Below, piece by piece: positions 32,460 to 43,953 of a stretch of DNA of 64,000 bases (its first letter is position 1; each line of letters opens with the position of its first letter). The stretch is from Yuukianura sp. NJ FZ-2021 (Eukaryota). Position numbers and translations under genes: made by a program. The stretch lies in assembly GCA_046563655.1 (NCBI GenBank), contig CM102284.1:9114001-9178000 (forward strand), written 5' to 3'. Under the pieces are notes generated by a model, which made no database searches, was not told the DNA's origin, and worked only from the letters and a program-made list of their open reading frames with translations.

Positions 32460-35325
32460 TTATTTATTAATCTCTTCAAACGCTGACCAAGCTTCGTTCA
32501 ATTCAATAAAAATGGCTTTGGCCAGTGCTTCATGTTCACTTCCTACTAATTTATCAGGATGAATAGCCAAACAGGCCTTTCTATAGGATTTCTTGACTCC
32601 AGGCATCGTCACCATTTCAGCCATACTGATTTCCTGCCAGTTACATTCTGGCCATGTCACCGTATGAAGACTGGACAGCAGAGCACGAATGTTCTTCGTC
32701 TTCCCTTCTTTCCAGTTACTCACCTAAAAATTGTCAATTAATCGTCAGTTTCAATTAACATGTCAAGTACTGGCAAGTATTTAGCAGTTCTTTCAGTAGT
32801 TGTGACTGACCTTGATTGAAATCGGATCCATTCCGCTGTTTATCATCTCTTGTTTCCTCATTTCCTGGATCGTTTGATTCTTACTGTTTGAACTGACGTT
32901 GAATCCCTCTGACTTGAGAAATTCTCCGAAAACGTCGTTCAGATTGCTTTTCTTTTGATCTTTGTCCACTGGTGGCTCAAATGCTGATCGACTGTAGTTG
33001 GGTTGACGAGGAGGTTGCGCAGAAGTATAACTATGAGTAACAGGAGCCGCTGGAGCAGCAGTTGGAGCTTGATAACTATTAAACAGTGACTTTTCCTTTT
33101 CTGTAACTAATTCAGTGAGATTTGGAGTGGAAACGTTTTTGACTATGCGCTCAGGTTTGAGCTGAGCAAGTGAACTGAATGACGAACTCGATGGAATCTG
33201 AAAGAACAAAACCACAAATTACTTACAATCAATTAATTAACTGATTAATCAATGGATTCAATTACCGTAGTTGTAATATCATTTCCAAAAAGATCCAGAT
33301 CATCCAGGATGTTTCTGCCTTTGGGAGGATTCGTTGTCTTCGGTTGCTGGGAAACTGTAGGCGACGTCGTCGCCGCTGCAGCGGGATTTAATACCGGAAT
33401 TGTAAAGTCACCAAAAATGTCGTCATTGGCAACTATTTGAGGACTGGGATTAACTGCTGGTGCTGGTTGAAATGCTGGGCCAGCATTTCCAACACTTCCA
33501 CCAAACAAGTCAGCTAAAAGATCCACATTTTGAAGATTATTATTAGGAAGATGTCCATTTTGATCACCATTTCGTCTGGAGGAGTCTTGTGTTTGAGAAT
33601 CTCCGAAATCTAGAAGAATCCCTTCCGTTTCTTCTTCATTTCCGGTACTTGGTTGTTCATCTTCAATTGGCGGAGACTTGCGACCAGAAGTTGGAGTGTT
33701 TTCTTGCGAAGGAATGTAGAATGTTGATGGTCTTACAGCAGGGGGGCTGGGTTTAGGCGGTCGAGGAGGAGGTGCGCTAGATGCTGGAGCTGGATGTGCT
33801 TGATTGTTGTTGGATGCTCGCGGTGGTTGAGGTCGAGCTGGTGCACCATTGTCAGGGCGAGATGCTGATGAAGATGCTGCTGGAATCGCTGTTTCAGCGG
33901 TCATTTCACGGATGTTTTCTTTGATATTTTTGAAAAGCGATTCGGCGCCACCTAAAACGAAAAATGGCTTTGGTACGACTGAAAAACGATTTTTCTAGCT
34001 CATTCCGCACCAGAGCTGGCAAGTATTTTTGAAACACTTACCACGCAACGAACTGAATAAACTTTTTTCTTCTTTCTTGACTTCTGTCACAGGAGTTACG
34101 ACGGGCTTCTTGAATTCAATTTTCGTTATTGTCACACCAGACAAGTGATTAAATATCGTTTCAAAATCCATCCGATCATCCGGGTTTGGTTGAAGTAGTC
34201 CTCCTTTAAAACGGATTGAAAAAATGATGATCGCCAGAAAAAAGTTTGTGAATTGTGTGTGAAAGTTGGATTGACTTACGAATAATAGGAGTAAATGAAT
34301 CTTCATTACGAATTAAGTACTTTGCATTGATAATTGCCAGTTTATTGGAGTCTGGAAAGGGATGACTTCCATAGTCCAGGAGGTACAGGAAACAGCCAAG
34401 GGCCCAAAGGTCAACACGAGTATCAATTTGGTAGTTTTGCCAGAGATCCAACAGTTCAGGAGCACGATACCTAAAAACAAAGAAGAACGTTAAAGAAACG
34501 TTTTACGCATTCAAGCGAAACCTAAGCTCACATTGGAGTAGTTTTTGCAGCAACTTTTTCTTCGACAATTCCGCGTTGCGTGGCGTTCCAATCAATGGTT
34601 GGCCTAATTACTTCACGAGTCGCGGAACCAAAGTCAACGAGCTTAACGTATCCGTCAGCCCCAACTAGAAAGTTCTCCAGCTAAAACGTACAGTTTATAA
34701 ATCAAAACGTTGTTTCGAAACTGAAGTTTGAATTGCTCTAGTAGCTGACCTTAATATCTCTGTGAGCAATGCCTAAGTTATGCATGTATTCAACAGCATT
34801 ACAGCACTGGCGAAAGGCATTTCCAACCAGTGCCTCGTTCCCCTCCGTCGGTGGAAGCGGACAGCAGTATTCCATAATAATGTAGTTTTCAACATTGCTA
34901 GTTTTGACTCCCAGTAGTTTAACAATATTTCGATGAGTCAATCTACTCAGAAGATCAATTTCTCCAGCTACTGCTTCTTCTGCAGCCTTGTCAGGAGTTA
35001 AAATTTTCTAAATCAACAAAAGGTCAATTAAAATCCTTCCGTTTGCTTAATTTCCAATGAATTTGTATGTACTTACCTTTACAGCTACGATTTGACCTCC
35101 GAAGTCACCGAAGTACACGTATGAAAATCCTCCTTCAAAAACAAGCATATAAAATCACTAAATTAGGCTAGGTAACTTTCCGAAATAAGTTAAAATCGTA
35201 TGTCTTACGTTACCTTCTGCAATTAGTTTCGTCAGTTTTAAGTTCCTTCCTTCAAATTTAATTGTTTCCATTGAGGTGTCCGAAGAGGTTTCTGTACTTG
35301 AAGAAAAGTAACTGCGGAATGCCAT
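32460..35325 (-). CDS. GAK: Cyclin G-associated kinase / auxilin (NAK kinase + clathrin-binding region + J domain), no PTEN/C2 module, about 750 aa
   Basis: LIAEGGFSYVY, VAVKK, HRNIVK, AHRDIKLENFLV, DFGSAT, TTPMYRAPELLDLW..VDLWALGCFLY..HPF; SSLRGGAESLFKNIKE; LLDFG and DLL motifs; J domain WKEGKTKNIRALLSSLH..YRKACLAIHPDK..IFIELNEAW. Confidence 0.92.
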
Positions 35326-39990: not shown

Positions 39991-41813
<1,823 letters not shown>

Positions 41814-43396
41814 CGCCAAGATAAGTTAAGTATGTGCTTTGGTGGGGCACACAGAGCCACCGGTACGCCACAAGCACAACCCAAAAACCGCAATTACAAT
41901 AATAATCCTGGAGGGGGCGGGGGTGGAAGTGTCCCGAACCACTTGCCGTCCCAGCAGCACTATTCTCATTTCAATGCATAAGTACCCCCCTCCATGTTCG
42001 CATTAATGTTCTTGAAATCAGCTGGAGCTGAAATTTCTGTTAGTATTAAAAACTCGGTTTTTGTAGGAATTCGCATCCACGAACAAATTTTCGGCGCCAA
42101 AATTTTTTCGCGTTTCGACACCAGTGGGCACCAGGCTTAACGTACTGAATTCCTTATTATTGTAATTATTATTATATTTATAAATTCGTGTTTTATGATT
42201 TCGACTTTTTTCATGTTAAGTATAAATTAGTCAACGTGTTACCACGCCGTAGATGACCTTGTGACCTGACGTTGTGCGTCCACTAACTTCAATGTGATTT
42301 GGTGCGTGGATCAAGTTTATGAATGGAAGTGAAAGTATGTGAAAGCATTATTCCATGAGATTGTTTTGCGTAGTTTAGTAAAGTAGTCAAAATCTATTTC
42401 ATCTTTAAAAAAAATGTCACAAAAAGCTATTAAAAAAATTCAAAAAAAAAAACTTTAAAAAGTGGAAATTAACCTTAATTAAACTAACATAAATTTGGAA
42501 AATGCGAGAAAGAGAAAGTAGGAATGCAAATTTTGAATTTTTTTTCGTTCTGTTTGTGTCACATCTGGGAGACGGATCAAAGTGAGTAGATTTAAATTTG
42601 ATGAGAATGAGAGTGTTAATTAAGTAGTCTAACACTTGACAATTGGAAATAAAGGAACCAGTTTTGAGCAATGTCTCTCTTTGCTTGACCTCCAACATTG
42701 CAGATTGTTACGCTTCAAGTTCAAGTTCAAAGGAGAAAGTGACTGCAGACGAGACACACAAGGACACAAAGGGAGAGCACAATTAATTAGTTATGCATTG
42801 AGGCAATCCTCTCTTGTTTAAACTATCACTTTCAAAATCTACGAGTTACAACAGTTACTATCTCTACTCAAAATCATAACAATTAACTTAACAATATAAA
42901 GGAAATTGTTAACTTTGTCCTTTAAAAAATGCATAACATAATCAGATTTTCACCTTTTCATTTTTTTATGTCTGGATTTCTTTTGTTTTTAGTGATTACA
43001 TCTGTCCGTTTTGTATGGTTTACAATGTTGTTAAATTGTTTTACTTTTTAAACACGACTTCTTTGCAAAGGTCAAAGGTCAAAATTTTCATAAAATTCAC
43101 AATTTGAGTTGAAGTAACAATTTTGATGTGGGTTCACTTTTGTTCTAAAATTTTCATGGAGGGATTTGGTGAAATTTTGAACTTGAGAATTATCGATTTT
43201 TTGGAAACTAAAACTTTCTCTGCTTTTTTTTTCCAAAGCGACAAAGTGAAAGTCAAGCCGGAACTACTGCTGCATTGCTGCGTAGAATTTCCAAAAAAGG
43301 TGAAGTTTGAAATCAAAATTTTTCAATTTCAAAAACTTTTTTCGAAAAAGTTGAAATACTGTATTAATAGTTACAACGAACGATGAAATTGGCAAG

Positions 43397-43953
43397 ATGA
43401 GACTCCACATTGTGCTGGCTGTCGGCCTTGCCCTGGTTCTTCCCGAAGCCCTATGTCAACTCATAGGTGTTGGTAAGTGTTAAGTGAGTATATTAATTAA
43501 TTCAAATAAAACTATGAATATGAAACAATAAATATAAAATAAAAAATATTTAATTACCTAAAAATCTTGTTCATTAACCTAATATTTTTGCTGATTGCAG
43601 GGAATATGTGTCTTGGTTCCGACTATACCAAAGGTTGTGACTACGAACTGACGAACCTGGTGTGTTTTGAGGGTCGGTGTGCCTGTCCCGAGTCCGGAGG
43701 GCGCATGTCCAGCCTTGCCCTGCCATGGACGTTGAACACAAAGTGGCACGATGGGCACCACAAGTGCTTTGCCACCCGTGGCTTCATGTGTGACCTCCAC
43801 CCCACCAAGAAGCGCGTGGACTGCCTCCCGGGAGTCAGTTGCATCCAGGATCCAAATAACCCGGGAGCAGGAACCTGTGCTGCCTCTGCCCTTCTACGCC
43901 CACCCTTCCTCGTCTCTGCCCTACTTACACTTCTCATCTTCTTCCAAAAATGA
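43397..43953 (+). CDS. Small secreted 10-Cys protein with probable GPI-anchor signal (EB-module-like)
   Basis: Exon 1 43397-43472 encodes signal peptide MRLHIVLAVGLALVLPEALC; phase-1 intron; exon 2 43601-43953 has 10 Cys including LVCFEGRCAC and ends with small residues plus a hydrophobic tail (AASALLRPPFLVSALLTLLIFFQK). GC-rich relative to flanks. Confidence 0.8.

Follow-up and report, generated by a model that had tools for sequence, protein, structure and literature searches.

Candidate UGA-C stop-codon readthrough extension of a CDKL1-class kinase in a springtail genome

In a stretch of 64,000 nucleotides (nt) from the springtail Yuukianura sp. NJ FZ-2021 (GenBank assembly GCA_046563655.1, contig CM102284.1, positions 9,114,001 to 9,178,000 of the forward strand), which we call the window and within which positions are counted unless another locus is named, a gene for a CDKL1-class protein kinase ends in a TGA stop codon that is followed by a C and by a further 55 open codons in the same frame. 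In our view, these codons probably extend the kinase in a functional manner, by readthrough of the UGA-C stop. A preliminary description of the window had proposed such an extension, stimulated by a hairpin and resembling the upstream tail of the protein; the open frame and the TGA-C proved to be conserved, with protein-level constraint between the window and the closer of two relatives, while the hairpin as a stimulator and the resemblance to the tail, beyond shared composition, were not supported. From comparison with related loci we infer that the extension is translated, that it is reached by readthrough rather than by splicing or editing, and that the long form has a function.

Results

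The first stop codon and the open frame behind it

The last exon of the kinase gene terminates in ...SFEHLPNI, followed by TGA at 41811-41813 and C at 41814. We collected 15 protein relatives, three of them longer proteins (among 618 candidates) and 12 of near-equal length (among 51); one (P0015) is incomplete, breaking off within the kinase domain, which leaves 14 that are informative for the C-terminus. Each of these terminates in [HK][LF]P[NT]I, with a conserved R-D-S-R-[ED]-S-F before it, so that the C-terminus HLPNI, which had merely looked conserved when the window was first described, is indeed so among relatives. By this comparison, the terminal HLP[NT]I motif is among the best-conserved parts of the tail, and in its free terminal form, F[ED]HLP[NT]I, it is conserved from shrimp to springtails. 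Because all 14 relatives end in the same motif, we regard the TGA as the old, normal stop of the kinase gene; a recent nonsense mutation at this position was ruled out on the same ground.

Behind the stop, the frame runs from RQDKLSMCFGG to HYSHFNA over 55 sense codons (41814-41978) and closes with TAA at 41979-41981, the coordinates being those first reported. Also as first reported, the segment is GC-rich compared with the AT-rich untranslated region (UTR) that follows it: its GC content is 0.52, versus 0.37 in the following 400 nt, and 100-nt windows give 0.47-0.56 over the extension, then 0.40 and 0.38, and 0.25-0.30 behind. In the window alone, however, the extension is no more than what chance would produce. 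When its bases are shuffled, 1553 of 20000 shuffles (about 8%) also stay open in frame, and the other frames of this Gly-rich, GC-rich stretch are fairly open in the window as well as in the closer of the two relatives introduced below; over the extension span of the window, frame +1 has a single stop, as do minus frames 0 and 2. That the extension is more than chance follows from the comparison with relatives.

Conservation of the open frame in two related loci

Metagenome contigs were scanned with the alignment of the last exon, which matched 324 stretches, and two of these encode relatives of the kinase together with DNA past the stop. L001 is a contig of 6657 nt whose last exon is 80% identical to that of the window, and L002 a contig of 2108 nt whose last exon is 50% identical. 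By similarity and gene order, L001 is orthologous and syntenic to the kinase locus of the window: exon 1 shows 98% identity, and the gene that follows downstream (window 43591-43944) occurs in the same order, with 58% identity. Searches with the extension itself added little to this set. A word-based search with its 55 residues returned no candidate relative, no relatives of it were found in scans of genome contigs and viral contigs, and when 1.84 billion representatives were searched with a profile, four matches had E-values up to 0.001. The best of these (P0017) corresponds to the extension of L001 itself, predicted from its ATG onward, and of the remaining matches, two are repeat proteins of great length and no relation to it.

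In all three loci the stop codon is TGA followed by CG, with the context TGA CGC CAA in the window, TGA CGG CAA in L001 and TGA CGA AAT in L002. The first codon behind it thus encodes Arg in each case (CGC, CGG and CGA), its third base in L002 differing from that in both other loci. The frame then stays open for 55 codons to a TAA in the window, for 58 to a TAG in L001 and for 100 to a TGA in L002, and it is the sole one of the six frames that is free of stops in all three loci, the others carrying 1-15. Only 518 of 20000 shuffles of the L001 extension and 48 of 50000 shuffles of the L002 extension remain open, the long open frame of L002 sitting in AT-rich DNA. Multiplied with the fraction for the window, these give about 2e-6 if the three frames are independent, which is a reasonable assumption because synonymous sites between the loci are saturated. 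The three extensions also share an end motif, YS(x)[FY]N, which lies one or two residues before the second stop in each.

Constraint on the encoded amino acids

The window and L001 are far enough apart for constraint to be visible: the kinase part of the last exon is identical at 74 of 75 residues, yet its proportion of synonymous differences (pS) is 0.87, which is saturated. Conservation of the DNA stops at the second stop codon, with 61% identity over the extension versus 40% over the 165 nt behind it, a value at the background level for the aligner (MAFFT). Only two gaps, one of 12 and one of 18 nt, interrupt the alignment of the two extensions, whose 153 aligned columns are without exception in the same codon phase. 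When the alignment is guided by protein, 29 of the 46 aligned residues are identical and differences at the three codon positions number 10, 11 and 23; the proportion of nonsynonymous differences (pN) is 0.23 against a pS of 0.63, corresponding to a dN/dS of about 0.2, and is close to the pN of 0.20 in the upstream low-complexity tail. Among identical residues, differing codons are used at 13 of 29 in the extension, 22 of 48 in the tail and 40 of 70 in the kinase part. Because almost half of the conserved residues of the extension are encoded differently in the two loci, as in the tail, the constraint acts on amino acids and not on nucleotides.

In line with this, local alignment of the two extensions in frame 0 gives a score of 85 (z-score 8.7, reached in 0 of 2000 residue shuffles); among the 18 same-strand frame pairs, the next highest score is 59. 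The blocks kept in both extensions are RQ.K, immediately behind the stop, then FGG, TPQ, YNN, GGGGGGSVP and, at the end, QHYS.[FY]N. Conservation therefore starts at the first codon past the stop (RQ.K..FGG..TPQ), upstream of the first in-frame ATG of L001. The preliminary description had suggested aligning the region in orthologs and computing a dN/dS-type ratio; both speak for its proposal, as neither in-frame stops nor frameshifting indels occur in L001 and L002, TGA-C is kept in both, and pN is well below pS between the window and L001.

Several observations nevertheless weigh against a functional readthrough extension, among them the openness of the window's frames under shuffling and, as described further below, the presence of splice-compatible sites and the lack of a conserved RNA structure. 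The comparison rests on three loci, and similarity between extensions is found in one pair, the window and L001; the L002 extension has no significant similarity to the other two, with z-scores of 0.3 (700 of 2000 shuffles) and 1.8 (124 of 2000). The end motif shared with L002 is in place in 189 of 200000 residue shuffles of that extension, and it was defined post hoc. Identity at the three codon positions of a plain DNA alignment is 0.63, 0.67 and 0.53, so that the excess of change at third positions is modest when the alignment is guided by DNA, and counts from the protein-guided alignment are biased toward a coding appearance by construction.

These points, together with the near-openness of other frames in the window and L001 and the ease with which low-complexity Gly and Asn runs align, would suit an untranslated segment, that is, a frame open by chance in a GC-rich 3'UTR and conserved for a function of the RNA or DNA, for example as a regulatory element. 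We consider this unlikely. It would leave to coincidence that all three frames are open, that the lengths of both gaps are multiples of three and that conservation ceases at the second stop; the use of different codons for 13 of the 29 conserved residues is unlike constraint at the nucleotide level, and the segment shows neither a conserved structure nor an Rfam match.

Routes from the kinase frame into the extension

If the extension is coding, it could also be reached at the level of the RNA, either by an alternative splice that removes the TGA or by adenosine-to-inosine editing of UGA to UGG. Editing can recode a stop codon, and in-frame GT..AG pairs that could remove the TGA number 32 in the window, 27 in L001 and 30 in L002. 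One such pair is orthologous between the window and L001, with its donor in the conserved SNY codons and its acceptor in the AG of ...TGACG[CG]CAAG; it is missing from L002. None of the candidate introns resembles the real ones, though: the five introns of the kinase gene have a GC content of 0.17-0.33, GTAAGT-type donors and T-rich TTTAG or TTCAG acceptors, whereas the candidates have a GC content of 0.47-0.5 and purine-rich acceptors. Every candidate splice would moreover remove the terminal motif, where conservation within the tail is highest, and splicing has no need for a frame that is open and conserved from the first codon past the stop in the phase of the coding sequence, as is seen in all three loci. 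An RNA-level route thus strikes us as quite improbable.

Separately, a good-looking 5' splice-site motif, CAAG/GTAAAT, is found in L001 (positions 1860-1869 of that contig) three codons past the TGA. L002 has none, and the window has weaker GT motifs at this site (ATAA/GTTAAGT and TTAA/GTATGT). A donor at this place would lie past the stop, without removing the TGA, and may be due to chance.

Translation of the segment as a separate small open reading frame (ORF), by reinitiation or from a transcript of its own, would require an internal start, and there is indeed an in-frame ATG in each extension, at codon 7 in the window (MCFGG...), codon 19 in L001 and codon 18 in L002; the 40-residue ORF that a gene caller predicted in L001 (P0017) starts at such an ATG. 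These ATGs are at non-homologous positions, and the blocks RQ.K, FGG and TPQ, conserved between the window and L001, lie upstream of the one in L001. A separate ORF also need not share the phase of the kinase coding sequence, yet the extension does so in all three loci. Readthrough fits better than a downstream ORF because of this shared phase, the conservation from the first codon past the stop and the lack of homology between the ATGs, and we regard the separate ORF as very unlikely.

An in-frame UGA that is conserved in three species and followed by coding sequence could, in principle, encode selenocysteine. The 14 relatives that reach the C-terminus all end at the motif before the UGA, however, and the sequence flanking it is of low complexity and not a redox motif. 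A search for a selenocysteine insertion sequence (SECIS) at E-values up to 10, which took in 2.1 kb from the window, the whole of L001 (4.6 kb downstream) and L002, found none; it gave nine weak matches (3 + 6), of which none belongs to the SECIS family. Selenocysteine is accordingly an extremely remote explanation.

RNA structure around the stop codon

The hairpin that had been put forward as a stimulator of readthrough (41833-41878) does form in the minimum-free-energy fold, at -18.6 kcal/mol, but it is not exceptional: it has a z-score of -1.4 over 52 nt, where 23 of 200 shuffles fold as well, and of -0.5 in a 90-nt context, where 63 of 200 do. No equivalent was found in L001 (z-scores +0.2 and +1.0) or L002 (-0.7 to -0.9 kcal/mol), and the consensus fold of two sequences reaches -3.65 kcal/mol with six pairs, so that no conserved stimulatory RNA structure emerges. 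The hairpin is probably not a functional part of the system. The conserved UGA-CG context is the sole candidate for a readthrough signal that we could identify here.

Adjacent and overlapping frames

The preliminary description had also seen in the extension an echo of the upstream tail, in the form of NNN and GGG runs, QHY and a further HLP. This likeness is one of composition only (z-score 1.4, 185 of 2000 residue shuffles), and an internal duplication of the tail was rejected as the origin of the extension, since tail and extension compare with z-scores of 1.4, 0.7 and 1.3 in the three loci.

Frame 0 of the window continues behind the second stop for another 52 open codons, to a TAA at 42138-42140. 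Double readthrough past the first TAA was rejected: in L001 the frame stops after eight codons and the DNA is unconserved (40% identity), on which grounds the open stretch at 41982-42140 looks like chance. On the minus strand, the extension is overlapped by two stop-to-stop frames, 55 and 58 codons long (41803-42002). We take them as by-products of GC-rich, Gly-coding sequence, because the orthologous spans of L001 and L002 contain stops.

The kinase gene and its neighbourhood

The coordinates of the gene and of the elements around its stop codons are collected in Table 1. Joined in a single frame, the six exons on the plus strand encode 376 residues with no internal stop, and the five introns between them are short, AT-rich and bounded by GT and AG without exception.

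Table 1. Features of the kinase gene and of the region behind its first stop codon; positions refer to the window.
Feature	Position	Strand	Remarks
CDKL1-class kinase, coding exon 1	40102..40479	+	ATG at 40102, ends ...HRD; joined model
CDKL1-class kinase, coding exon 2	40556..40671	+	joined model
CDKL1-class kinase, coding exon 3	40761..40773	+	13 nt; completes W, then YRAP; joined model
CDKL1-class kinase, coding exon 4	40860..40914	+	joined model
CDKL1-class kinase, coding exon 5	41138..41262	+	joined model
CDKL1-class kinase, last coding exon	41370..41810 (41813 with stop)	+	end of kinase domain, low-complexity tail, conserved terminal motif
First stop TGA plus +4 base C	41811..41814	+	context ATT-TGA-CGC-CAA; TGA-CG also in L001 and L002
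Candidate readthrough extension	41814..41978	+	55 codons, open frame, RQDKLSMCFGGAHRATGTPQAQPKNRNYNNNPGGGGGGSVPNHLPSQQHYSHFNA; homologous to the 58-codon extension of L001
Second stop TAA	41979..41981	+	conservation with L001 ends here
Hairpin of the preliminary description	41833..41878	+	within minimum-free-energy fold; neither exceptional nor conserved

By sequence similarity, the gene encodes a CDKL1-class serine/threonine kinase. The solved structure closest to exon 1 is that of human CDKL1 (4agu, E-value 6.2e-65), followed by those of CDKL2 (2.1e-46), CDKL3 (5.8e-41), CDKL5 (5.7e-35) and CDKs (about 1e-29), and Pfam assigns a Pkinase domain (E-value 5.5e-36). Compared over its full length, the model shares 85% of its residues with a protein of the springtail Allacma fusca; identity is 81% with one from Orchesella dallaii and 72% with the 'CDKL4' of the shrimp Macrobrachium, best matches that point to a springtail or a near hexapod relative. 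A ciliary role of the kinase, with localisation to the transition zone and control of cilium length, is assumed from homology to the CDKL1 class and from the literature.

The intron content of the gene differs between the loci. In L001, a single ORF (positions 392-1039 of that contig) spans the counterparts of exons 1, 2 and 4 of the window (window 40066-40922), so that two or more of the short introns seen in the window seem to be absent from L001, and in L002 the coding sequence from QIFR to NEFF is uninterrupted at the place of the window's intron 5. This pattern suggests that introns have been gained or lost between closely related species.

The neighbouring gene downstream (window 43543-43953, plus strand) encodes a Cys-rich stretch and has its counterpart at positions 3552-3905 of L001, with 58% identity and with order and orientation kept; a possible signal-peptide exon for it lies near 43386-43483. 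About 5 kb upstream of the kinase, on the minus strand (34621-34992), there is a weak kinase-like match, 25% identical to the ORF that covers CDKL exon 1 in L001, which is probably another protein kinase gene.

Discussion

In the readthrough reading that we favour, most ribosomes would terminate at the UGA at 41811-41813 and release a protein of 376 residues ending in ...FEHLPNI, while a fraction would decode this UGA, which lies in a leaky context, by means of a near-cognate tRNA and translate a further 55 codons up to the UAA at 41979-41981. From work in yeast and human cells, the residue inserted at the UGA would be expected to be Trp, Cys or Arg. The product would be an isoform of 432 residues with a disordered, Gly/Asn/Gln/Pro-rich tail that carries a conserved end of its own, QHYS.[FY]N. 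As to its function, our guess is that the extension internalises the HLP[NT]I motif and adds a second signal, for interaction or turnover.

Carried further, this leads to the idea that the CDKL1 of springtails, and perhaps of hexapods or pancrustaceans more widely, has an old switch between two C-termini, F[ED]HLP[NT]I-COOH on the one hand and QHYS.[FY]N on the other. We offer it tentatively and think it doubtful rather than likely. Were it true, readthrough would mask a terminal signal as much as add one, and the position of the kinase, for instance at the ciliary base, or its lifetime would change.

Hundreds of insect and crustacean genes are believed to be subject to functional readthrough, which has a known purpose in few cases, and to our knowledge non-insect hexapods have hardly been examined for it. 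The present case is of interest in that a stop codon, its context and an extension persist between species that have diverged to saturation at silent sites, and in that the protein concerned is a member of a small kinase family of medical relevance, to which a ciliary role is ascribed. As its normal C-terminus is itself sharply conserved, the kinase would offer a concrete, testable example of a tail that alters the localisation or partners of an enzyme. We found no literature linking programmed readthrough to a CDKL gene or to springtails, although supplementary gene lists were outside the scope of this search and an ortholog from fly or mosquito may be listed there. Likewise, no paper on readthrough of CG7236 was found, and a search for readthrough together with Collembola or Folsomia returned unrelated papers only. 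Among the matches listed, papers on readthrough that mention CDKL concern the therapeutic suppression of nonsense mutations in disease, mostly in CDKL5 or in neurological disorders, and a term search of a phylogeny of the CDKL family gave no mention of readthrough (PMC12075339).

Springtails lie within Pancrustacea. For insects and Daphnia, though not for a centipede, functional readthrough has been inferred to be abundant, and its origin has been placed in Pancrustacea (Jungreis et al., PMC5100048). The springtail kinase would provide a data point for how far back within this group abundant readthrough reaches. The signatures of readthrough genes in Drosophila, in the excerpts of a 2026 preprint that we draw on (PMC13278127), are UGA, a C at position +4, raised GC content, long 3'UTRs and disordered extensions. 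Like the candidates of Drosophila and Anopheles described in these two sources, the kinase has a conserved UGA-C stop and a second ORF with a coding signature, and like the insect genes of the preprint, its extension is raised in GC compared with the rest of the 3'UTR, of low complexity and probably disordered. Unlike those cases, its support comes from three loci and pairwise statistics rather than from PhyloCSF over many genomes or from ribosome profiling, and its downstream context, CGN-CAA or CGN-AAT, departs from the motif UGA-CA[A/G]N[U/C/G]A given in the same excerpts.

Among individual proteins, mammalian MDH1 and LDHB have readthrough extensions that add a known terminal signal, the peroxisomal targeting signal PTS1. 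The kinase resembles them in that a short extension would change what the C-terminus of the protein presents, and differs in that this extension would bury one motif, HLP[NT]I, and present another, YS.[FY]N. It shares with selenocysteine recoding a conserved in-frame UGA with coding sequence after it; in contrast to that system, a SECIS was not found in the regions searched, and this UGA is where every relative with a complete C-terminus terminates. Another parallel is the Drosophila POU factor Drifter/vvl, likewise a regulatory protein with a conserved C-terminal readthrough extension, for which readthrough was reportedly measured in vivo and shown to alter activity (PMC8417969), whereas readthrough of the kinase is proposed from sequence. 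Set beside these systems, the case would add a further candidate to a familiar type of readthrough, in a gene and an animal group that are new to it, and not a new mechanism.

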